64,000 nucleotides of DNA from a phage, in the NCBI GenBank assembly GCA_036930585.1, contig GCA_036930585.1_3066.1. One strand, 5' to 3'. Within the stretch, counting starts at the first letter, position 1. The number at the start of each line of letters is the position of its first letter. A program made the translations under genes and the position numbers. Below the pieces are notes generated by a model. It was not told the origin of the DNA. It did no database searches and saw only the letters and a list, made by a program, of their open reading frames with translations. Shown piece after piece: positions 9,100 to 52,100 of this stretch.

Positions 9100-9214
9100 A
9101 TTTTACCCTTAATCGATTAACCGAGCATTGATAAGTACTAAACTATACTGCGAATAAAATTCTGGACCAAAATGAAAAATCATATCATTTATAGTATCCA
9201 TAATGTAATTCAAT

Positions 9215-9652
9215 TTAATCATGTGTCCACACCCCATCGGTATTTGACCAAAGCCGCTGATTATCTGATCCTCGCCACAGCTTTTTGGTCGGAAGATTTT
9301 TCTCATACTTCCCATCAATAATAACATCAACATATTTAAGCATTTCTAGCTGTTTAATATCTTCAAACTTATATCCTGTCCACAACCAAATGTCTTTCTC
9401 AGGAAATCTTGCTTTAACCCAAGAAACTAAATTTGAAATCTCTTCTCGGTTCTGTGGATAAAGCGGGTCACCACCGGTTAAGGTAAGGCCTTGGATATAT
9501 GATTTGCTTAAATGGGACGCAAGTTCTTTAACGGTATTCATAGTGAATAACTGTCCGTTACGAGCATTCCAAGTACTACGATTATAACAACCTTCGCATT
9601 TATGCAAACAACCTGTAACGAAAAGAACGGTCCTGCATCCAGGGCCATTCAC
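9215..9652 (-). CDS. nrdG: anaerobic RNR activating enzyme NrdG (radical SAM), no ATG or SD, in-frame TAG just upstream
   Basis: VNGPGC...CLHKCEGCYN motif; track start is GTG at 9652. Confidence 0.75.
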   Translation of the reverse strand: MNGPGCRTVLFVTGCLHKCEGCYNRSTWNARNGQLFTMNTVKELASHLSKSYIQGLTLTGGDPLYPQNREEISNLVSWVKARFPEKDIWLWTGYKFEDIKQLEMLKYVDVIIDGKYEKNLPTKKLWRGSDNQRLWSNTDGVWTHD

Positions 9653-9716
9653 AAAGCAGCACGGGATTGTCTACTAGAGAGGTTCCCCGTTTAGACCGGT
9701 TTTACATGAGCCTGAA

Positions 9717-10263
9717 TTAAATTAACTCATACGCCTGGAATGCATCGTATACATCTTTTTCTGTTTTAGATTGGGCATAATTCAATGCATCAGCGATTTG
9801 CCATTTTTCTGCGTCCTCAATATGTTTTGCGTAGGTACGTTTAACATAAGGAGAAAGTACTTTATCTACATTCGCAAAAGTCGTTCCGCCGTATTGGTGA
9901 GAAGCAACCTGTGCAGTAATTTGTGCCATAATTGCAGTAGCAACACCGATTGATTTAGGAGTTTCAATCTGTGCATTACCAAGCTTAAATCCGTTTTCAA
10001 GCATTCCTTTTAAATCTACTAAACAACAATTAGTAAATGGCAATGATATACTGTAATCTAAATCATGGAAATGAATAATTCCGCTTTCATGCGCTTTCAT
10101 AATAAAAGACGGGACCATATTTTTGGCAATGTGTTTAGACACAATACCAGGCCATAAGGTCCCGTTGAGTTGGAAAAACACGAGAATCTTTATTAGCATT
10201 CTCGTTTAAAAGGTCTTTATTAGTTTTATGAATCAATCCTTCAATTTCTTTTTCAATTGTCAT
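9717..10263 (-). pseudogene. nrdD: nrdD remnant: N-terminal ~165 codons of class III RNR, with a frameshift near 10146-10153 and premature stop at 9717
   Basis: ATG at 10263 opens MTIEKEIEGLIHKTNKDLLNE...; NrdD-like sequence continues in another frame (GIVSKHIAKNMVPSFIMKAHESGIIHFHDLDY...). Confidence 0.75.
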
Positions 10264-10733
10264 TTTAAACTCTTTCTAAGCTGCTTCTTGAATGAAGCTA
10301 TTAATTGTGTTTTGGTGTCAGATTCATTATATTCAAATCCTCTTTGAAGCATCTCGGCCATCATTTCCTCTTTTCCGAAACGAGAAAATTCCTTTGATTT
10401 ATCTCCAACAAAGTTAGGGTGAATATTATTTTGGGTGTAATCGGATTTTAAATAAGTAAGTAAATTTTCTAACCATTCAAGATAATCAACACCTTGTCCC
10501 TTTAAGCCAGAACGATTAAATTTATGCTTCATTTGACCTTCTGCGGCATTGCATAGATTACAAAGCAATCCACGTACCTTTCCTGCTTTTGGTCCATTTA
10601 ATTCATGGTCATGATCAAGATGATTAGCTTGAACATCAGGATTTAGTTCTCGTTGGCAAATTAAGCATTTACCGTTTTGTGCATCATAAAATTTCTGTTT
10701 TTCTTCTTTATATAATTTGCCAGTCAATAACAT
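10260..10733 (-). CDS. 49: endonuclease VII (Holliday junction resolvase)
   Basis: 157 aa; matches T4 gp49 by recall, Cys-rich zinc site. Confidence 0.95.
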   Translation of the reverse strand: MLLTGKLYKEEKQKFYDAQNGKCLICQRELNPDVQANHLDHDHELNGPKAGKVRGLLCNLCNAAEGQMKHKFNRSGLKGQGVDYLEWLENLLTYLKSDYTQNNIHPNFVGDKSKEFSRFGKEEMMAEMLQRGFEYNESDTKTQLIASFKKQLRKSLK

Positions 10734-10774
10734 AATAAACCCTTACCTTAAATAGATAAGGGTATTTATTATTT

Positions 10775-11278
10775 TCAAGTATTGTAAAACATTTGATTCA
10801 ATCGCTTATATTGCCGAATCTTTTGGTCAGAAAAAGAAATTTGGGTTTCAAGCCATTCAATGTACTCTGCGGCAGCTTGCATCAGGTTACCTTCATAGCC
10901 ATCGTTATTTTCTTGCGCAGCTAATTTAGCTAATGCGTATGAAATACGTTCACCTTGAAAAGCGGCTTTAGGCTTCTGAACATCTTGGCTAGTTCTCTCT
11001 ACAACTTCTTCAATTTCGCCATTTTCTACTGATTCAGTATTCCACAAACACCAGTATGTAATTGGCTTATCATAGATGTTAATAATCTTTCCGTCAGAAA
11101 GTTCAATTTCAATAATTCCAGTGTCAGGCTCTATATCATCTTCACATTCTTTTACAAGTTCACGAACTTTAAAGACAGTACCTGCACTAAGTTCCGGCCA
11201 GTAATTACACAGCCCTGTATCAGCACGATTAATTCTAAACCACTTATCTACTGTAATCATGTCCCATCTCCATATCAA
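10775..11278 (-). CDS. hypothetical protein (pin/49.1 region)
   Basis: 167-aa ORF preceded by promoter. Confidence 0.55.
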   Translation of the reverse strand: MIWRWDMITVDKWFRINRADTGLCNYWPELSAGTVFKVRELVKECEDDIEPDTGIIEIELSDGKIINIYDKPITYWCLWNTESVENGEIEEVVERTSQDVQKPKAAFQGERISYALAKLAAQENNDGYEGNLMQAAAEYIEWLETQISFSDQKIRQYKRLNQMFYNT

Positions 11279-17685: not shown

Positions 17686-18000
17686 CTAAAAGAAACTTCT
17701 TTCACAATTTTTTCCACTGAACCATGCGCTTACCGCTTTCTTAGTCTCAGGAGCAGTGTTATCCATAAACCATTCAAAGGCAGCCTTTTTATGATTCTGG
17801 AGGGCTTCTCGGGCTTTAATCTGCTCACGGTCTATTAACACTAACATATGAGCCTTTCTTGTCACCATGGGCTTCTTATGATTTTTTGAATACTCCCAGT
17901 CATTTGTCCAACGCATCGTTGTTGCGAACTGATGAACCGCGTCTTTAATTTTAGTTTCGTAAATTTCACGAGCCTTTGAGTATAACATCATTACCTCCAT
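17686..18000 (-). CDS. hypothetical protein
   Basis: 104-aa ORF. Confidence 0.5.
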   Translation of the reverse strand: MEVMMLYSKAREIYETKIKDAVHQFATTMRWTNDWEYSKNHKKPMVTRKAHMLVLIDREQIKAREALQNHKKAAFEWFMDNTAPETKKAVSAWFSGKNCERSFF

Positions 18001-18090
18001 TCACCAGTTTAATTCTAGTCATCTTTTTAATGGCAGTCCATATAATCTATTTCTGAACTGCCTTTTTGTCATAGAAGTCCTCTTATGAAT

Positions 18091-19077
18091 TTATTTCAGA
18101 AGAGTAACCTCAGCGATTTCTTGCCAACCGTTTTTGTCGGTCATAATAAAGTCAGCAAGATAAAGTGCAGTACGCAGTGAAACATTGCGTAAACGATTAA
18201 CATTGACTTTCATCCATGATAATGCTTTATAAGTTTCTTCATCAGAAAGACCGCGCTTTTGCATCATGTCAGTTGAAAGAATAACATCTTCAACCCTGAC
18301 CATAATTTCTTCATTAGTGTGAACACCCAAATCCAAATAAACCGAGCGGGACACTAATGCTTGTAAATGTGGAGCAAGTTTAGTACCACGGTCTAATTCG
18401 CGGTCAATGTCAACGTTTGTGATAAAAACAATCGTTCCTTTAAATTCAAACTCACGCTCAATGCCTTTTTCTTCTAAGTAAGAAGATGCGGTGCTCCAGC
18501 AGACTTTACGGGTCTCTCCAGTGTCCAGAGCAGCTTTCAGAAGATTAAGAATGTCCATATCAGAGAAAACATCCACATCATCAATCAAAAGGACAGAATT
18601 CTCTTCACGATTATTCCAAAGTTGTTCATAAAGACCGATACCGGAGATTTTACCGTTAATGCTTTTATATTCAATGTATCCATTATCATTTGCTTTATTC
18701 AAAGCTTTATCTAAAGAATACGTTTTACCAATACCCGCCGCACCAGAGATAATTAATGAACGAATGTTTCCGTTAATAATACCATTCGTCATCATTCCCA
18801 TAACATTAAATCTTTTATTAATGCGGGTTTTCATATCTTCATATGATTCTTTAACTTCTTCAACTTTTACACCATCATATGAAATGTCTGATTTGTAAAC
18901 CCAAACACCGCGACGCTTACCGTCAATTTCAACAAAAACTTTACCATCTCCTTGTGCATCTACCGGAGCATTATCTGGGAACCATTCACCTAAGAACTCA
19001 AAAGTTCCAGAGATTTCTTTACCGAAGTAGATACCCTTATTGATAGTTACAGTTTTCATTTTATTCTCCAATCTCAC
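18091..19077 (-). CDS. P-loop NTPase
   Basis: Walker A GAAGIGKT, Walker B VLLIDDVD. Confidence 0.65.
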   Translation of the reverse strand: MRLENKMKTVTINKGIYFGKEISGTFEFLGEWFPDNAPVDAQGDGKVFVEIDGKRRGVWVYKSDISYDGVKVEEVKESYEDMKTRINKRFNVMGMMTNGIINGNIRSLIISGAAGIGKTYSLDKALNKANDNGYIEYKSINGKISGIGLYEQLWNNREENSVLLIDDVDVFSDMDILNLLKAALDTGETRKVCWSTASSYLEEKGIEREFEFKGTIVFITNVDIDRELDRGTKLAPHLQALVSRSVYLDLGVHTNEEIMVRVEDVILSTDMMQKRGLSDEETYKALSWMKVNVNRLRNVSLRTALYLADFIMTDKNGWQEIAEVTLLK

Positions 19078-19095
19078 ATTTGTTTTGATAGGGTA

Positions 19096-19125
19096 ATAGT
19101 ATCACACTACTACCCTTCTGTAAAC
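19096..19125 (-). promoter_or_regulatory. early-type promoter: GTTTAC, 18 bp, TACTAT
   Basis: motif upstream of ORF 18091..19077. Confidence 0.6.
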
Positions 19126-19128
19126 AAT

Positions 19129-19392
19129 TTATTTTAACGTTCGCCAAATTTTTACTGCTTCACGGCGAGATACTTCTACAGCTCCAAGTTCTACAGCTTT
19201 TTGGCGTCGGCGAGCGTGTAAGTCATAATGTTTAATGCGTTTATCTTGAAACCAAGAACGTTTCATTCCTATTGCTTCTGCCATTTCATGAAGCTCTTCA
19301 ATATCTCCATCAGTGAACATATGACAATTTTTAGTTGGATGACCGCGAAGTTTCCATCCATGATTCATTAAAACATCTACGTAAACTGTCAT
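19129..19392 (-). CDS. hypothetical protein
   Basis: 87-aa ORF. Confidence 0.5.
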   Translation of the reverse strand: MTVYVDVLMNHGWKLRGHPTKNCHMFTDGDIEELHEMAEAIGMKRSWFQDKRIKHYDLHARRRQKAVELGAVEVSRREAVKIWRTLK

Positions 19393-19538
19393 TGATTCTT
19401 CTCCAAATAAGTTTCGATAATTTTCTGAGCGAGATAAACTGCATTATCTTCAGTTGCATCTTCTAAGAAACTTTCAAAACACTCTGAAATTTCTTCTGTG
19501 TCAATCAACTTTTTTACTTCAATTGGTGTAATTTTCAT
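19389..19538 (-). CDS. small hypothetical protein (49 aa); track N-terminus rejected
   Basis: internal ATG lies downstream of promoter 19576-19605. Confidence 0.4.
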   Translation of the reverse strand: MKITPIEVKKLIDTEEISECFESFLEDATEDNAVYLAQKIIETYLEKNQ

Positions 19539-19575
19539 TTTGTTTTTCCGTTTAAGTGTTTGTTTTGATAGTTGT

Positions 19576-19605
19576 ATAGTACCATAAAGCTTTATGCTTG
19601 TAAAC
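19576..19605 (-). promoter_or_regulatory. early-type promoter: GTTTAC, 18 bp, TACTAT
   Basis: motif read on minus strand. Confidence 0.6.
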
Positions 19606-19624
19606 AATTTTGTGAAAAATTTTT

Positions 19625-19654
19625 GAAATAAAAAAGGGAGCCCGAAGGCTCCCT
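19625..19654 (-). terminator. intrinsic terminator (agggagcc-ttcg-ggctccct then TTTTTT on minus strand)
   Basis: directly after stop of ORF 19656..20666. Confidence 0.65.
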
Positions 19655-19655
19655 A

Positions 19656-20666
19656 TCATTTATAATAACTTCGGTGGTTTTCAAGATAAACCCTCTCAAG
19701 GAAGTCATCCCAGAAACCCATGTCTACTTTTTGCTGCATACCGTTCTTAGAAGCTTCAGTAGATGCTGCTTCTACTTGATCGACCACATCTTCCAAAAAC
19801 TCTTGAACCGTTTTAAATGGATGTTTACCCAACTTCACGTCGAGAATAAATGGAGCATCTTTGAGTGGATAAACCAAGTCACCAGTTTTGTAAATTTCCA
19901 ATAGTTGGAGTCCACCACGGCAAGCATGGCTCAGAGCTTTCCAGTCAATACCTTCATTGGCTTCGGCCTTACGAGCACGTTCACCATATTCAGCATCTAA
20001 TTTGTTCAGTGACTGCTTAAGCTCAATAAGAGAAAGCGTTGTCTGATATTTACGACCCAACACTGTGTAAAACGTCTGTGGGCCTGTTTTCTCATGATTA
20101 TGGAACACCCATTCACAGAATTCGTTTTCTGGAAGACGATGCTTAATATCTTCAACTTTAGTACGACGCTGCTTAATGGAACCGTCTTCTTGGTAATCAA
20201 CCCATTGCTCAGGGATTTGATTAACTACTTTCAATACATCACGTAATGCAGCCAAACGAGAACCCTTGACACCGTATTTAGAAGCTTGCTTGCGGACATA
20301 TCCTAAATAGGATTTCATGTTAGTCGTATAAAAACGAGAACGGTTGTCTTGAATAAACTTCCACACATCAGGCAAATCAGATTTAACCACTAGTTCAGGT
20401 GGAGTGTGAAGCATATCCAATGCTACAGTTTCACCATCTGCTGCTAATTTAAAGAAATATTTAAGACTGTATAGTTCATGGTCAATATCATCTTTAGTGT
20501 TTTTAGATGATGTGTTGTTAGTGTTTTTACTCATGTGCTCTTTAACGTTTCCGATAAGAATATCACGAGCAGGAGGAACAAAGATTTCTTTAAAATCTAC
20601 ATCAGATTCTGGGGTAGAAGTTCCATAAAGATGACTACCAAAATAAGACTTAACTACAGTTTTCAT
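19656..20666 (-). CDS. nucleotidyltransferase-fold protein (pol-beta superfamily)
   Basis: 336 aa; N-terminal GSHLYGTSTPESDVDF (GS...D.D motif). Confidence 0.6.
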   Translation of the reverse strand: MKTVVKSYFGSHLYGTSTPESDVDFKEIFVPPARDILIGNVKEHMSKNTNNTSSKNTKDDIDHELYSLKYFFKLAADGETVALDMLHTPPELVVKSDLPDVWKFIQDNRSRFYTTNMKSYLGYVRKQASKYGVKGSRLAALRDVLKVVNQIPEQWVDYQEDGSIKQRRTKVEDIKHRLPENEFCEWVFHNHEKTGPQTFYTVLGRKYQTTLSLIELKQSLNKLDAEYGERARKAEANEGIDWKALSHACRGGLQLLEIYKTGDLVYPLKDAPFILDVKLGKHPFKTVQEFLEDVVDQVEAASTEASKNGMQQKVDMGFWDDFLERVYLENHRSYYK

Positions 20667-21127
20667 TATTCAGCCTTATATTCAATAACAGGACATACTT
20701 TAGCTTTACGAGCTTTTAAAAATTCAACGATAACCGATTTCTTTGGTTGAATAGGAGGTAAACCTTTATACGCCCTATCAATATTTTCTACATGTAAAGC
20801 ATAATCCTTTTTCCATTTATAATCTTTATATTTTTCATGCAGTTGTGCAGGAATAACAAATGAACCAATAATAAGTAAAATAAGCAAAATGGCAAGTATA
20901 AATGCTGATGGAATAAGAGTCCATAAACTACCAAAAATAAGCCATTTCTGTATGATTTCTGCACAGATAATAGTTAGACCTGCGAGTATAGTACATCCGA
21001 AAAAAGAAACGAAAAATGTAGGGATAACAATAGACCAAAAGTATGCACACAATGTCTTAGGTCGTTTCCATTCGTCGTTAAACAGTTTGAATAATTTATA
21101 GTGCCAAGAGTTTTCATTAATAATCAT
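20666..21127 (-). CDS. membrane protein (multi-TM)
   Basis: 153 aa, several hydrophobic segments. Confidence 0.55.
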   Translation of the reverse strand: MIINENSWHYKLFKLFNDEWKRPKTLCAYFWSIVIPTFFVSFFGCTILAGLTIICAEIIQKWLIFGSLWTLIPSAFILAILLILLIIGSFVIPAQLHEKYKDYKWKKDYALHVENIDRAYKGLPPIQPKKSVIVEFLKARKAKVCPVIEYKAE

Positions 21128-21129
21128 AA

Positions 21130-21651
21130 TTATCCTTTCATTGAAGGTGTAACAGTTGTTAAATACTTAATCATAGCCTCAGCTTCTGATTTTGATAATG
21201 AAATTTCTTCATTGTTTTGACGAATAGAAATAAAATCCGGATGACGGTCACCACCAGCTTTTAAAACACACATATAAGTATCAGTTTCATCTTCAATATC
21301 TGAAATGATTGAAGCAGTTCCACATGAATGTGGTTTTTGATAAATCAATACAGCTTTTCTTCCACCGTTTGACTGTTCATAAACTTTTAACACATCAAAC
21401 AAATCGCTTCTTTTATCAATAGCTAAGATGTTGTTTTCATCTTCAATATTAAATCCTTCGGATACTTCATAAAGTGTCACCCATAAATCACCAATATCAA
21501 TAACAGCGTTCACTTTTCCATGACTTTCAAGAGCATTACAAATTTTCTTAATTTCATCATAACTCATTTTAATAATATCATCTCCTTGAATAAGGAAGAT
21601 GTCATTTTTAAATTCAACACGAATTAAACCGCTTCCACTTGAAATAAACAT
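21130..21651 (-). CDS. hypothetical protein (tandem paralog A)
   Basis: 173 aa; C-terminus SKSEAEAMIKYLTTVTPSM. Confidence 0.55.
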   Translation of the reverse strand: MFISSGSGLIRVEFKNDIFLIQGDDIIKMSYDEIKKICNALESHGKVNAVIDIGDLWVTLYEVSEGFNIEDENNILAIDKRSDLFDVLKVYEQSNGGRKAVLIYQKPHSCGTASIISDIEDETDTYMCVLKAGGDRHPDFISIRQNNEEISLSKSEAEAMIKYLTTVTPSMKG

Positions 21652-21657
21652 ATTTCC

Positions 21658-22212
21658 TCACTTTGAAATCATAGTTGGAATGACAGAATCAAGATAAGTC
21701 TTTAACGCAATAGCTTCGTCTTTGGTAAATGTGACAATATGTGCTTGAAAATCGTCAATTTGACGAATAGTTAAGACATCTCCCTCTTCATAACATTTTG
21801 ATACATTTAAAAGAGTTTCATCATTCTGATTGCAAGCGTTAGTAATAATAGCATTGCAATTTTTGAGCCATTTTAAACTATGTTTTCTTTCATTAGAATA
21901 ATAAAAATATTTAATCTTAGCTATAAAACTATCCCAATGGATAACTGATAAACACATTGACTCACTTTTAATATTAAATCCTGGGCATGAAGAATAAAAA
22001 TGAATTTTGTGCTCATCATTGATGCTTACTATTTTATCAGTATAAGGATATTCAATTTGGGTTAAATGAATGATTTCACTAGGCGTAAAATATAGCATAT
22101 CGTCTTCTTGCGTCAAACGATACATGTTATTTACTTTTTCTATAGCCAATTCACCAAAAAGCGGACTAACTTCTAATACTAATCGTTTCATATTAATCCT
22201 TTTTATTGGCAC
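21658..22212 (-). CDS. hypothetical protein (tandem paralog B)
   Basis: 184 aa; C-terminus TKDEAIALKTYLDSVIPTM. Confidence 0.55.
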   Translation of the reverse strand: MPIKRINMKRLVLEVSPLFGELAIEKVNNMYRLTQEDDMLYFTPSEIIHLTQIEYPYTDKIVSINDEHKIHFYSSCPGFNIKSESMCLSVIHWDSFIAKIKYFYYSNERKHSLKWLKNCNAIITNACNQNDETLLNVSKCYEEGDVLTIRQIDDFQAHIVTFTKDEAIALKTYLDSVIPTMISK

Positions 22213-22471
22213 GAATTTGTTCTAAAATTTTAGAATATTCCTTTGTATCAGATTTACGTACAATTGATACACTATAAGGCATACTATCGGTGTCTTTTAT
22301 AAAGCGTTCCAAATGACACTCTAACAAAATTTCTGGATTATAAATCGTGTACATCAAATTACCTGTTGCTCCACGATATTGGCAGATTTCTACTGATTGA
22401 ACACCATTCCATAATTTTGTTAAAACTAAATCACCTACTTCTAATTTAGGAAAGCCCATGTTATTCACCAA
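22193..22471 (-). CDS. hypothetical protein
   Basis: 92-aa ORF. Confidence 0.5.
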   Translation of the reverse strand: MVNNMGFPKLEVGDLVLTKLWNGVQSVEICQYRGATGNLMYTIYNPEILLECHLERFIKDTDSMPYSVSIVRKSDTKEYSKILEQIRANKKD

Positions 22472-22646
22472 TTAAAGTTTCAATATAAGAATCAAGATTT
22501 ACTTTAGCTTCTTCCATAAGAGTTTTGTATTTAATCTTGTTAGCATGTCCGGAGAAAGCTGATTCATCAATAACTGTTGATGTATGAACAGCTCTACTAT
22601 ACGTCTCAATTAATTCTCTTAATTTAAAAGCCTGCTCACTTGTCAT
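22461..22646 (-). CDS. hypothetical protein
   Basis: 61-aa ORF preceded by promoter. Confidence 0.45.
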   Translation of the reverse strand: MTSEQAFKLRELIETYSRAVHTSTVIDESAFSGHANKIKYKTLMEEAKVNLDSYIETLIGE

Positions 22647-22670
22647 TACATACTCCTTTGAATCATATCA

Positions 22671-22700
22671 ATAATATTGTTCACCAGATTATAAGTAAAC
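22671..22700 (-). promoter_or_regulatory. early-type promoter: GTTTAC, 18 bp, TATTAT
   Basis: motif read on minus strand. Confidence 0.5.
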
Positions 22701-36467: not shown

Positions 36468-36543
36468 TGGTCGAGGCAGTAGGGATCGAACCTACGACCC
36501 AGGACTTAGAAGGTCCTTGCTCTTCCTTCTGAGCTATGCCTCG
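36468..36543 (-). tRNA. tRNA-Arg (anticodon TCT)
   Basis: hand-folded cloverleaf, T-loop GGTTCGATCC, encoded CCA. Confidence 0.85.
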
Positions 36544-36547
36544 TAAT

Positions 36548-36623
36548 TGGGGTGACCGATGGGAGTCGAACCCATGACTACGAGAATCACAATCTCGAGT
36601 TCTACCAACTAAACTACGGCCAC
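36548..36623 (-). tRNA. tRNA-His (anticodon GTG)
   Basis: hand-folded; acceptor 7 bp; no encoded G-1. Confidence 0.7.
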
Positions 36624-36737
36624 ATTAATACCTACTCCAACAATCAAGATGTCTTCACACGAAATTAAGAGAAGAGTGATCAGTTCAACCCCGATAATCG
36701 CGTCAAGTAGATATTAATGTGACAATTGTCACAAATT

Positions 36738-36812
36738 TGGCGGACGTGATAGGATTCGAACCTATAACCAATCGCTTAACAGGCGATCGCTCTGCCATTG
36801 AGCTACACATCC
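36738..36812 (-). tRNA. tRNA-Asn (anticodon GTT)
   Basis: hand-folded; T-loop GGTTCGAATCC. Confidence 0.8.
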
Positions 36813-36816
36813 AAAT

Positions 36817-36903
36817 TGGTGGGGAGTGATGGAGTCGAACCACCCGAGTCGCAATGACAATGGATTTACAGTCCACACCGCTACCTCTACGGGATAACTC
36901 CCC
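36817..36903 (-). tRNA. tRNA-Tyr (anticodon GTA), long variable arm
   Basis: hand-folded; 87 nt. Confidence 0.75.
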
Positions 36904-36916
36904 TTAATTCTTAATT

Positions 36917-36991
36917 TGGTGGCCCTGGGTGGAATTGAACCACCATCTGGCGATTATGAGTCGCTTGCTTGAACCTTCCAGCTACAGGGCC
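36917..36991 (-). tRNA. tRNA with CAT anticodon (Ile2/AUA-reading or elongator Met)
   Basis: hand-folded; G1-C72 paired so not initiator. Confidence 0.75.
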
Positions 36992-36992
36992 T

Positions 36993-37068
36993 TGGTGCTG
37001 ATTGACGGAATCGAACCGCCGACCTTCTCATTACAAGTGAGTTGCTCTACCTACTGAGCTAAATCAGC
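36993..37068 (-). tRNA. tRNA-Thr (anticodon TGT)
   Basis: hand-folded. Confidence 0.85.
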
Positions 37069-37073
37069 AAAAC

Positions 37074-37163
37074 TGGCGGAGGCGATAGGATTTGAACCTA
37101 TGAGTCGCCGGAGCGACTGCCGGTTTTCAAGACCGGTGCATTAAACCACTCTGCCACACCTCC
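37074..37163 (-). tRNA. tRNA-Ser (anticodon TGA), long variable arm
   Basis: hand-folded; 90 nt. Confidence 0.8.
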
Positions 37164-37165
37164 AG

Positions 37166-37239
37166 TCTCCATACAAGGATTTGAACCTTGGACCTCCTGA
37201 TCCCAAATCAGGCGCTCTACCAAACTGAGCTACACGGAG
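37166..37239 (-). tRNA. tRNA-Pro (anticodon TGG), CCA not encoded
   Basis: hand-folded; 2-nt spacer to tRNA-Ser. Confidence 0.8.
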
Positions 37240-37249
37240 TAAATTAAAT

Positions 37250-37323
<74 letters not shown>

Positions 37324-37328
37324 AAATT

Positions 37329-37415
37329 TGGTGCGAGAAGTGGGACTCGAACCCACAAGGAAATCATTCCGCAGCATTTTAAGTGCTGTGCCTTTACCAA
37401 TTTGGCCATTCTCGC
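37329..37415 (-). tRNA. tRNA-Leu (anticodon TAA), long variable arm
   Basis: hand-folded; 87 nt. Confidence 0.8.
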
Positions 37416-49138: not shown

Positions 49139-52100
49139 CAGTAAAAGCACCTTCAGTCACTAGTCTCAGAATTTCCAAGTTATCCGCAAATCAGGTGCAA
49201 GTACGCTGGGATGACGTTGGTGCTAATTTCTACTATTTTGTAGAAATCGCTGAGACAAAAACGAACTCGGGGGAAAATCTCCCGAGTAATCAATACAGAT
49301 GGATTAACTTAGGATATACTGCAAATAACAGCTTCTTTTTTGATGATGCTGACCCATTGACATCATACATTATCAGAGTAGCTACAGCTGCGCAAGATTT
49401 TGAGCAGTCTGATTGGATTTATACCGAAGAGTTTGAAACTTTTGCTACAAATGCTTATACATTTCAAAACATGATTGAAATGCAATTAGCCAATAAATTC
49501 ATTCAGGAAAAATTTACTCTTAATAATTCTGATTATGTTAATTTTAACAATGACACTATAATGGCTGCATTGATGAATGAATCATTTCAATTCAGCCCAT
49601 CGTATGTTGATGTTTCATCAATAAGTAATTTTATTATTGGTGAAAATGAGTATCATGAAATACAAGGTTCTATTCAGCAAGTATGTAAGGATATTAACCG
49701 AGTTTATTTGATGGAATCAGAAGGGATTCTATATCTTTTTGAGCGCTATCAGCCTGTAGTTAAAGTATCCAATGATAAAGGACAAACCTGGAAAGCTGTA
49801 AAGCTCTTCAATGACCGTGTAGGATATCCTTTATCTAAGACAGTATATTACCAATCTGCAAACACAACATACGTTCTAGGATACGACAAGATTTTCTATG
49901 GCCGTAAATCGACTGACGTTAGATGGTCAGCAGATGATGTCAGATTCAGTTCGCAGGATATAACATTTGCTAAACTTGGCGACCAGTTACATTTAGGATT
50001 TGATGTAGAAATCTTTGGTACTTATGCGACTTTACCAGCGAATGTATATCGTATAGCTGAAGCCATTACTTGTACGGATGATTATATCTATGTTGTTGCC
50101 AGAGATAAAGTTAGATATATAAAAACGAGCAATGCACCTATAGATTCTGATCCATTATCTCCAACATATTCGGAAAGGCTATTTGAATCTGATACAATGA
50201 CTATAACTGGAAATCCTAAAGCAGTATGCTATAAAATGGATTCTATTGGTGATAAAGTTTTTGCTCTTATTATCGGTGAAGTTGAAACATTAAATGCTAA
50301 TCCTAGAACGTCAAAAATAATTGATTCTATTGATAAAGGAATATATGTTTTAAATCATGACACAAAAACGTGGAAAAGAGTTTTTGGCAACACTGAAGAA
50401 GAAAGAAGACGTATTCAACCTGGGTATGCGAATATGTCAACTGATGGTAAATTAGTTTCTCTATCTTCGAGTAATTTTAAATTTTTAAATGATAACGTTG
50501 TTAATGACCCTGAAACTGTAGCAAAATATCAGTTAATCGGTGCCGTTAAATATGAATTTCCTCGTGAATGGTTAGCTGATAAGCAGTATCATATGATGGC
50601 ATTTATAGCAGATGAAAAGTCTGATTGGGAAACTTTTACGCCTCAGCCAATGAAATACTATGCAGAACCATTCTTTAACTGGTCTAAAAAGTCTAATACA
50701 CGGTGCTGGATAAACAACTCTAATAGGGCTGTGGTAGTTTATGCAGATTTAAAATATACTAAAGTTATTGAAAATTTTCCAGAAACATCGCCAGATAGAT
50801 TAGTTCATGAATACTGGGATGACGGCGATTGCACTATAGTAATGCCAAACGTTAAATTCACGGGATTTAAAAAATATGCGTCTGGGATGCTTTTTTATAA
50901 ATCTTCTGGTGAAATAATTTCTTATTATGATTTTAACTATCGTGTGAGAGATACAGTAGAAATTATTTGGAAGCCGACTGGAGTATTTTTAAAAGCATTT
51001 TTACAAAACCAAGAGCATGAGACTCCTTGGGCACCAGAAGAAGAGCATGGATTAGCTGACCCTGATTTAAGACCATTAATTGGCACAATGATGCCTGATT
51101 CTTATTTGTTGCAGGATTCGAATTTTGAGGCATTTTGTGAAGCATATATTCAATATCTTTCTGACGGATACGGAACTCAGTATAATAATTTACGAAATTT
51201 AATTCGTAATCAGTATCCACGAGAAGAGCATGCGTGGGAATATTTGTGGTCAGAGATATATAAAAGAAACATTTATTTAAATGCTGACAAACGTGATGCT
51301 GTTGCAAGATTTTTTGAATCACGTAGTTATGATTTTTATTCTACTAAAGGAATTGAAGCATCATACAAATTTCTTTTTAAAGTTCTTTATAATGAAGAAG
51401 TTGAAATTGAAATTGAATCTGGAGCTGGTACTGAATATGATATAATCGTTCAATCTGATTCTTTGACTGAGGATTTAGTAGGACAAACGATTTATACAGC
51501 TACAGGAAGATGTAATGTTACTTATATAGAAAGAAGTTATTCTAATGGTAAATTGCAATGGACCGTGACTATACATAATCTTTTGGGGCGTTTAATAGCA
51601 GGGCAAGAAGTTAAAGCAGAAAGACTTCCTAGTTTTGAAGGCGAAATTATTCGTGGGGTTAAAGGAAAGGATTTGCTTCAAAATAATATAGACTATATTA
51701 ATAGAAGTCGATCATATTATGTAATGAAAATTAAATCCAATTTACCTTCTTCTCGTTGGAAATCTGACGTTATTCGTTTTGTTCATCCAGTAGGATTTGG
51801 ATTTATAGCAATCACGCTTTTAACTATGTTTATTAATGTCGGTTTAACTCTTAAACACACAGAGACAATAATTAATAAATATAAAAACTACAAATGGGAT
51901 TCTGGATTGCCTACTGAATATGCTGATAGAGTAGCTAAATTAACTCCAACTGGCGAAATTGAACATGATTCAGTAACAGGAGAAGCAATTTATGAACCTG
52001 GCCCAATGGCTGGTGTAAAATATCCTCTTCCTGATGACTATAATGCTGAAAATAATAATTCAATATTTCAAGGTCAATTGCCTTCTGAACGACGCAAGTT

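Follow-up and report, generated by a model that had tools for sequence, protein, structure and literature searches.

Two neighbouring early genes of a T4-like phage, one for a P-loop ATPase and one for a nucleotidyltransferase (NTase), raise the question whether their products form a functional pair or whether the genes are neighbours for other reasons. They lie in a 64,000-nucleotide stretch of phage DNA (NCBI GenBank assembly GCA_036930585.1, contig GCA_036930585.1_3066.1), which is called the window here. The window phage is a T4-like Tequatrovirus, and the 3.6 kb surrounding the locus are 98-99% identical at the DNA level to many Tequatrovirus genomes. In annotated relatives and in T4 the two open reading frames (ORFs) carry the names nrdC.10 and nrdC.11. 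An initial annotation had placed them at 18091..19077 and 19656..20666 and had proposed nucleotide-modifying or nucleotide-signalling functions, possibly in counter-defence. Both ORFs exist. They are carried by the minus strand, which had been left unstated, and the ATPase gene probably begins at the ATG at 19059 rather than at the GTG at 19077; a GGAG Shine-Dalgarno sequence precedes this ATG by 6 nt, and relatives are annotated with the same start. Thus, nrdC.10 (18091..19059, minus strand) encodes a protein of 322 amino acids (aa), not 328, which is an AAA+ ATPase restricted to phages and carrying a beta domain at its N-terminus. The nrdC.11 gene (19656..20666, minus strand) encodes a 336-aa protein, which its matches to PF10127 and PHROG 388 place among the RlaP-family RNA NTases of the pol-beta superfamily.

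The reading that we favour, and hold to be reasonably likely, is that these are two unrelated early accessory genes which are neighbours by shared ancestry, NrdC.11 being an RlaP that repairs RNA and NrdC.10 an AAA+ ATPase. The finding is real and largely already explained. The initial annotation stated that neither protein has an assigned function, which is outdated. Assignments to AAA (NrdC.10) and to the COG3541 nucleotidyltransferases (NrdC.11) were published in 2006 (PMC1524935), and T4 NrdC.11 is explicitly listed as an RlaP, in cluster 5, in the recent literature (PMC12776372). On account of these assignments the finding has to be regarded as already known.

NrdC.11 and the RlaP family of nucleotidyltransferases

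The window NrdC.11 protein is 98.8% identical to T4 NrdC.11. It matched PF10127 (RlaP, 'RNA repair pathway DNA polymerase beta family') with 43.9 bits against a gathering cut-off of 23 (E-value 3e-11, residues 7-134) and PHROG 388 'nucleotidyltransferase' with an E-value of 6e-136. With a cut-off of E ≤ 1e-3 an exhaustive HMMER search with NrdC.11 returned 3399 cluster representatives, of which 826 reached E ≤ 1e-30; the best 150 of them were mostly full length. Conservation was analyzed in a set of 59 relatives with 34-54% identity. All 59 matched PF10127 and no other Pfam family. Invariant in these relatives are G10, S11, D22, D24, N56, D62, Y131, K243, H247 and R250; D60 and D84 are nearly invariant (D84 at least 90% conserved).

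Since the Pfam model spans only the N-terminal half of NrdC.11 (model positions 24-142 of 249, versus 19-248 in short RlaPs), the NrdC.11 family profile was compared by hhalign with seven phage proteins of ~255 aa that match PF10127 end to end, referred to here as short RlaPs. Residues 2-332 were aligned with a probability of 99.96-100% and an E-value of 6.5e-39. The NTase motif GSHLYGTSTPESDVDF quoted in the initial annotation is present (residues 10-25, G10 S11 ... D22 x D24; 20592..20639, minus strand), and its G10, S11, D22 and D24 are among the invariant residues. It pairs with TGSxAYGT..SDxDFKG of the full-length PF10127 proteins. It is followed by a family-specific KNTKDD(I/V)DxE motif containing N56, D60 and D62 (20475..20504, minus strand) and by an ALDMLH strand carrying D84 (20406..20423, minus strand). 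D84 is aligned with E98 (NNIEILF), which is invariant in the short RlaPs, and, following the pattern of the pol-beta superfamily, is likely the third catalytic carboxylate of NrdC.11. The pol-beta signature, comprising hG[GS], [DE]x[DE] and a third carboxylate, is found in NrdC.11, and the residues match their equivalents in full-length PF10127 proteins. In the C-terminal domain the motif GIDWKALSHACR, with K243, H247 and R250 (19917..19952, minus strand), aligns to GYDTKFxxHxxRL of the short RlaPs.

A single gap in the hhalign alignment corresponds to an insert of ~95 residues that is specific to the NrdC.11-type subfamily (about residues 141-236; 19959..20246, minus strand; boundaries approximate). 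Judged by this alignment, the NrdC.11 subfamily is a predicted full-length RlaP with an insert of ~95 residues. That NrdC.11 is an RlaP we regard as nearly certain. The NTase assignment of the initial annotation was right at the level of the superfamily and is hereby sharpened to RlaP.

The GS...DxD motif is common to NrdC.11 and to signalling NTases. NrdC.11 might accordingly be a signalling or toxin-antitoxin enzyme, either CD-NTase/cGAS/OAS-like, producing second messengers or decoys, or MNT/MntA-like, AMPylating a protein partner. Weak, motif-only matches were indeed obtained with NTP_transf_2 (E-value 0.088) and MntA (E-value 0.066). Each of them spans ~18 residues of NrdC.11 and stays far below the cut-offs, with 13.6 bits versus a gathering cut-off of 21 for NTP_transf_2 (PF01909) and 13.1 bits versus 60 for MntA (NF047752). 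NrdC.11 is also much longer (336 aa) than the minimal MNT/MntA NTases of type VII toxin-antitoxin systems (~100-140 aa). No Pfam match to CD-NTase, OAS or SMODS was found at E ≤ 0.1 and none in PADLOC; PADLOC and NCBIfam gave nothing informative for the five proteins of the region. None of the neighbouring proteins scanned was a HEPN or effector protein. Together with the exclusive match of all 59 relatives to PF10127 and the finding that characterised RlaPs labelled RNA, neither protein nor DNA, these results speak against nucleotide signalling and against the MNT-like option raised initially. We consider a signalling or toxin-antitoxin role extremely unlikely.

RNA-repair neighbours and the proposed role of NrdC.11

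The repair of tRNA by T4 in response to the PrrC nuclease is a textbook case of a phage-host arms race at the level of RNA. The family PF10127 was named RlaP from its linkage to RNA ligase genes, and its members were predicted to restore nucleotides at RNA ends before ligation (PMC7824862). According to a preprint of December 2025, two Pseudomonas RlaPs (PfRlaP and PaRlaP) add 1-2 nucleoside monophosphates (NMPs) at RNA 3'-OH ends, prefer Mn2+ and have little nucleoside triphosphate (NTP) specificity; RNA was labelled (rRNA-sized, tRNA-sized and fragments), DNA and protein were not (PMC12776372). Given an annealed mimic of a cleaved tRNA, RlaP acted more readily on the 3' end at the anticodon break than on the acceptor end, and it partly rescued aminoacylation of a repaired tRNA that lacked one nucleotide (PMC12776372). 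The crystal structure consists of an NTase domain and a helical domain, and the 3'-OH ends of the RlaP products fit 5'-phosphate ligases (PMC12776372). Since the anticodon nuclease RloC excises the wobble nucleotide and thereby leaves the tRNA one nucleotide short, a 2008 study proposed that it overcomes phage tRNA repair, which it 'could encumber' (PMC2610378). For the RlaP family, the foremost hypothesis is counter-defence through repair of RNA that host ribotoxins have cleaved (PMC7824862, PMC12776372), and the counter-defence idea of the initial annotation is in line with it.

Judged by its homology to the Pseudomonas enzymes, NrdC.11 most likely extends broken RNA at the 3'-OH by one or two NMPs without a template. 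We infer that damaged tRNA is its in vivo substrate; NrdC.11 would restore tRNA nucleotides removed by 'smart' anticodon nucleases such as RloC. In the proposed order, the kinase-phosphatase Pnkp would heal the ends, NrdC.11 would add the nucleotide, and the 5'-phosphate RNA ligase Rnl1 would seal the break. We consider it moderately likely that NrdC.11 acts in the repair of RNA breaks. If NrdC.11 indeed restores nucleotides cut out by RloC-type nucleases, T4 would possess an extra layer in this arms race. The nucleotide-restoring hypothesis is already in the literature, and the present analysis adds detail, not discovery: the insert of ~95 residues in a full-length RlaP, the RNA-repair neighbours of the subfamily itself, and an AAA+ neighbour that is probably not a partner.

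The genomic neighbourhood was examined in 67 viral NrdC.11 loci, 44 of them distant (≤50% identity) and 23 close. An Rnl1-type RNA ligase (PF09511, E-value 9e-27) is encoded ~15 nt upstream of the NrdC.11-like gene in nine of the 44 distant loci. A protein with HD and P-loop kinase domains, an arrangement resembling an RNA end-healing enzyme, is encoded nearby in eight, and in six other distant loci a CCA-adding enzyme (PolyA_pol, RNA-binding and HD domains) follows directly downstream. AAA_33 kinase, HD, PolyA_pol and RNA_lig_T4_1 were the commonest Pfam families among 94 mid-sized neighbours from 34 non-redundant loci. The NrdC.11 subfamily itself therefore shows an RNA-repair neighbourhood. 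In one of the loci (L099:9202-11273) a dense cluster of RNA-end enzymes was observed. Directly before the NrdC.11-like gene, on its upstream side, there is what looks like a truncated NTase of the CCA-adding type (266 aa), and a 126-aa ORF, ClpS-like by eye from its sequence, and then a full CCA-adding enzyme lie downstream.

The CCA-adding enzyme immediately downstream of the NrdC.11-like gene in six loci would also fit a different function, in which NrdC.11 extends RNA 3' ends at other targets, namely the acceptor (CCA) ends of tRNAs or host and phage RNAs whose stability is changed by tailing. The broad labelling of rRNA-sized, tRNA-sized and fragment RNAs by RlaPs in vitro, with little NTP specificity, is compatible with such targets, the insert could give NrdC.11 a specificity of its own, and the phage carries its own cluster of ten tRNAs. 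On the other hand, the acceptor end of the cleaved-tRNA mimic was less favoured by RlaP than the 3' end at the anticodon break, and the closest neighbours elsewhere, Rnl1 ligase and HD-kinase, are enzymes for sealing breaks. We rate these other targets as rather unlikely and continue with break repair as the preferred role of NrdC.11.

Three known systems come close to NrdC.11. NrdC.11 shares PF10127 and the G-S...DxD...D/E catalytic residues with the Pseudomonas RlaP, which is encoded between rtcB and rtcA, and by profile alignment to canonical phage RlaPs it would also share the domain order, with the NTase domain at the N-terminus and a helical domain at the C-terminus. In contrast to the Pseudomonas protein (cluster 1a), NrdC.11 falls into cluster 5, carries the insert and is not adjoined by an RNA ligase in T4-type genomes; moreover, the Pseudomonas setting includes the 3'-phosphate ligase RtcB, whereas the T4 ligase Rnl1 is a 5'-phosphate ligase. 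The T4 Pnkp-Rnl1 pathway, which reverses anticodon cleavage by PrrC, is found in the same phage lineage as NrdC.11 and belongs to the same proposed anticodon-nuclease arms race, and in other phages NrdC.11-like genes adjoin Rnl1-type ligases and HD/kinase end-healing proteins. Unlike Pnkp and Rnl1, which heal and seal without replacing nucleotides, NrdC.11 would add one, and its gene is unlinked to theirs in T4. A third comparison concerns the CCA-adding enzymes of class II, which combine a PolyA_pol head with HD and whose genes often adjoin those of RlaPs in phage genomes. NrdC.11 belongs to the same pol-beta superfamily and, as an RlaP, would likewise add nucleotides to RNA 3' ends without a template. 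They differ in that NrdC.11 has no PF01743 match, and in that CCA enzymes add a defined CCA at the acceptor end, whereas RlaP has little NTP specificity and stops after 1-2 nucleotides.

NrdC.10 as an AAA+ ATPase

The two motifs quoted for the ATPase in the initial annotation were readily found in NrdC.10 (all motif coordinates on the minus strand): Walker A GAAGIGKT at residues 106-113 (K112, T113; 18721..18744) and Walker B VLLIDDVD at residues 156-163 (D160, D161; 18571..18594). Three further elements were assigned. FITN (18415..18426) carries the invariant N215 at the end of the modelled strand 209-214 and, from AAA+ topology, is the putative sensor-1 strand. An SRS motif (18343..18351) with invariant S237, R238 and S239 contains R238 as candidate arginine finger, at a position that would fit SRC/box VII. 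LRNVSLRT (18169..18192), with the likewise invariant R291 and R296, lies in the modelled helical lid (249-320) and is a candidate sensor 2. Across 34 homologues, the most distant of them 55% identical, no substitution is seen in Walker A, Walker B, N215, R238 or R291/R296. Owing to this invariance across the homologue sets, the motifs of NrdC.10 and NrdC.11 are not chance occurrences.

The structural model confidently gives NrdC.10 an AAA+ fold, with an alpha-beta-alpha core and a helical lid in addition to Walker A and B and the assigned sensor 1, arginine finger and sensor 2, and structural matches were to AAA+ proteins. The invariance of the full catalytic motif set therefore leads us to expect an active, oligomerising ATPase. 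Thus, the P-loop ATPase proposed in the initial annotation is very probably an active AAA+ ATPase. NrdC.10 would be catalytically complete, probably oligomeric and phage-specific, with an N-terminal beta domain that presumably selects the substrate.

The relationship of NrdC.10 to known AAA+ proteins is distant. No Pfam AAA family scored above its cut-off, and sequence and profile searches of the PDB gave only insignificant P-loop matches to Cdc6, HerA and mS29. With the MoxR (NorQ, CbbQ), RuvB and sigma-54-activator AAA+ proteins NrdC.10 shares the Walker motifs, sensor 1, arginine finger and sensor 2 and, according to the model, the alpha-beta-alpha core, the helical lid and a beta-alpha-beta insertion before the sensor-1 strand. 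In contrast to these structural matches, to which its identity is ≤20% (mostly 9-16%), NrdC.10 possesses a unique N-terminal beta domain and is confined to phages. It also differs from sigma-54 activators in lacking a GAFTGA loop, and no partner gene of the VWA/CbbO, RuvA or sigma-54 kind lies near NrdC.10-like genes. A role like that of sigma-54 activators or RtcR was rejected, as the GAFTGA loop is absent and the similarity generic.

Instead of a novel remodeller, NrdC.10 could be an accessory ATPase of replication or recombination, of the clamp-loader, RarA, DnaA/Hda or RuvB type. The similarity to clamp-loader subunits (gp44/RFC/gamma) is limited to PHROG 168 and PHROG 5846, with an E-value of only 1.4e-4 over ~90 residues; NrdC.10 has SRS, not SRC, and its model shows an N-terminal beta domain instead of a third collar domain. 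We judge such an accessory role unlikely. A STAND NTPase identity was likewise rejected, with 22.3 bits versus a cut-off of 27.2 for nSTAND3 and 18.9 versus 34 for nSTAND5; the structural matches were to classical AAA+ proteins.

NrdC.10 was found in 1312 phage records, including phages of Escherichia, Klebsiella, Vibrio, Acinetobacter and Aeromonas. Among 185,579 bacterial and archaeal genomes there were two loci, one on a phage-sized contig of 167 kb and one with a weak partial match. Outside close T4 relatives none of the BLAST-clustered neighbours of NrdC.10 recurs, and no Pfam family was enriched among 98 neighbours (adenylosuccinate synthetase three times, topoisomerase twice, others singletons). 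Beyond the 2006 note of an AAA motif match we found no literature on NrdC.10. As a well-conserved, phage-restricted ATPase it is a reasonable, if unspectacular, target for functional study.

Proteins of 500-545 aa encoded in loci L035-L045 (match at ~9200-10800 in each) were rejected as NrdC.10 relatives. They belong to a different, larger AAA+ family that has only the core in common with NrdC.10 (26-34% identity), and they were left out of the linkage count given below. In seven loci conserved genes of ~705, 113 and 561 aa precede the gene of this larger family, forming a conserved operon.

Linkage of nrdC.10 and nrdC.11

Against an expectation of 0.74, the T4 early-promoter pattern (GTTTAC-N18-20-TAnnAT) occurs 17 times in the window, with 16 of the occurrences on the minus strand. 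One T4-type early promoter (GTTTAC-N18-TACTAT) precedes nrdC.10 (19096..19125, minus strand; GTTTACAGAAGG...TGATACTAT). A second one (19576..19605, minus strand; GTTTACAAGC...TGGTACTAT) precedes a cassette of two small ORFs that separates nrdC.10 from nrdC.11, as the initial annotation had described. The claim that each gene has an early promoter of its own holds for nrdC.10 and the cassette and fails for nrdC.11, where the closest upstream match lies at 22671..22700 (minus strand). Directly 3' of the nrdC.11 stop codon there is an intrinsic terminator, an 8-bp hairpin (6 GC) followed by a T-run (19635..19654, minus strand), which is annotated as a terminator in phage D5505. No minus-strand terminator was predicted between the match at 22671..22700 and nrdC.11, and this match probably starts a polycistronic unit that ends at the terminator behind nrdC.11. 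From the two promoters and the terminator it follows that the region comprises three transcription units. A middle promoter for nrdC.11 was rejected, since the MotA-box pattern was not found in positions 18000-22700.

The nine closest NrdC.10 loci (≥66% identity) all encode NrdC.11 at a distance of at most 2.3 kb; no NrdC.11 relative was found within 10 kb in the 34 other, distant ones. Conversely, NrdC.10 was found near NrdC.11 in 16 of the 23 close NrdC.11 loci, was absent within 10 kb in the remaining seven, and was not found nearby in any of the 44 distant ones. In three of the seven loci without NrdC.10 (L053, L055 and L067) nrdC.8 and nrdC.9 are still present, a sign that nrdC.10 was cleanly lost. 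One contig of 183 kb carries both genes ~40 kb apart. In T4 114 bp separate nrdC.10 and nrdC.11; in the window phage a terminator, a promoter and the foreign two-gene cassette lie between them. The adjacency of nrdC.10 and nrdC.11 is best read as inherited synteny in the hypervariable nrdC-mobD region. This reading is consistent with the spontaneous loss of a nrdC.11-mobD.3 fragment in viable genome-reduced T4 mutants (PMC9825161). In a further T4 record (OL964745.1, Escherichia phage T4, 159,752 bp) only the last ~39 residues of NrdC.11 are left, at ~49712-49828. This genome appears to be a deletion derivative, consistent with nrdC.11 being dispensable in the laboratory.

It could still be argued that ATPase and NTase form one functional module, for instance with an ATP-driven remodeller supplying the NTase with its substrate, or as a signalling or counter-defence pair. 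The two early genes share a strand, occur widely in Straboviridae (1312 phage records for NrdC.10, 1505 for NrdC.11), and are adjacent or at most ~2.3 kb apart in nine of nine close NrdC.10 loci and 16 of 23 close NrdC.11 loci. However, the linkage disappears outside the close relatives of T4, each gene occurs without the other, and one genome holds them ~40 kb apart. The genes are divided by a terminator and separate promoters, and in the window phage by foreign DNA as well. Moreover, no AAA+ family was enriched near NrdC.11-like genes, and no NTase or RNA-repair family near NrdC.10-like genes. The functional pairing implied by the initial annotation is thus not borne out, and we consider a single module very doubtful. 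A related scenario, in which NrdC.10 founds a virus-only AAA+ family with a new N-terminal domain, acts in host takeover or counter-defence and, in T4-type phages, cooperates with NrdC.11 so that the adjacency is functional, also seems quite improbable to us. As an example of such cooperation, NrdC.10 might pull damaged tRNA from stalled ribosomes or nuclease complexes. That NrdC.10 and NrdC.11 function independently is, in our view, a probable conclusion.

Several points weigh against the overall reading of an RNA-repairing RlaP beside an unrelated AAA+ ATPase. Cooperation inside T4-type phages may be compatible with the absence of conserved linkage. The insert of NrdC.11 is absent from the characterised RlaPs and could alter substrate or activity, and repair by RlaPs in general is still a proposed model, based on aminoacylation in vitro. 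RNA-repair neighbours occur in a minority of the distant NrdC.11 loci, roughly 3-6 of 34 non-redundant ones. Neither in the window nor in T4 does an RNA ligase or Pnkp gene adjoin nrdC.11; its neighbours there are nrdC.x and mobD genes, and the repair genes of T4-type genomes lie elsewhere. The AlphaFold2 model of NrdC.11, computed from an alignment of 20 sequences with 78-99% identity, had a mean predicted local distance difference test (pLDDT) score of 57.9 and values below 50 for residues 1-98, the NTase domain; a Foldseek search of the PDB with this low-confidence model gave meaningless matches (best E-value 0.075). Nor did sequence or family-profile searches of the PDB find a solved relative, and the NTase fold is predicted from family membership and profile evidence. 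For NrdC.10, we found no family-specific match, conserved neighbour or publication that points to a substrate.

The two-gene cassette between nrdC.10 and nrdC.11

The cassette, including its own early promoter, extends from 19129 to 19605 on the minus strand. Its first gene (19389..19538, minus strand) encodes an acidic protein of 49 aa (PHROG 6888), and the stop codon overlaps the next start codon (ATGA). The second gene (19129..19392, minus strand) encodes an 87-aa DUF4031 protein (PF13223, E-value 8e-22). The 92 DUF4031 relatives are, without exception, small standalone proteins (49-128 aa), and no informative fusion was among them; the one paper found to mention DUF4031 is a short report of a phage genome. 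Phage ECML-134 has a two-ORF spacer of 100% identical sequence, and at least 80% of the spacer is covered in only 137 of 540 matching phage records. T4 lacks the cassette, and four loci of other T4-like phages (L006, L058, L060 and L065) carry the same pair 2-3 kb beyond nrdC.10. The cassette looks like a movable, moron-like element.

Other features of the region

Upstream of nrdC.11 a predicted membrane protein of 153 aa (PHROG 944) is encoded at 20666..21127 (minus strand), and its stop codon overlaps the nrdC.11 start codon by 1 nt. Homologues of this protein are encoded just upstream of NrdC.11-like genes in 27 of the 67 loci, distant ones included (L071, L072, L099, L100 and L105). This neighbour of NrdC.11-like genes is more consistent than the adjacency to NrdC.10. 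In T4 the position is occupied by the homing endonuclease gene mobD. Genes on the plus strand of the region were rejected, as no plus-strand ORF exceeds 79 aa.

Many phage records in GenBank name nrdC.N genes, including those of the ATPase and the NTase, 'thioredoxin', and one record reads 'thioredoxin DnaA binding protein'. No similarity to thioredoxin was found in NrdC.10 or NrdC.11, and the labels appear to have spread from the gene name nrdC.N.

In an Rfam scan for structured RNAs the sole match was a cluster of ten tRNAs at 36468..37415 (minus strand), comprising Arg-tct, His, Asn, Tyr, Met/Ile-cat, Thr, Ser, Pro, Gly and Leu. This set is larger than, and partly different from, the eight tRNAs of T4, and it may matter for host defences that target tRNA.

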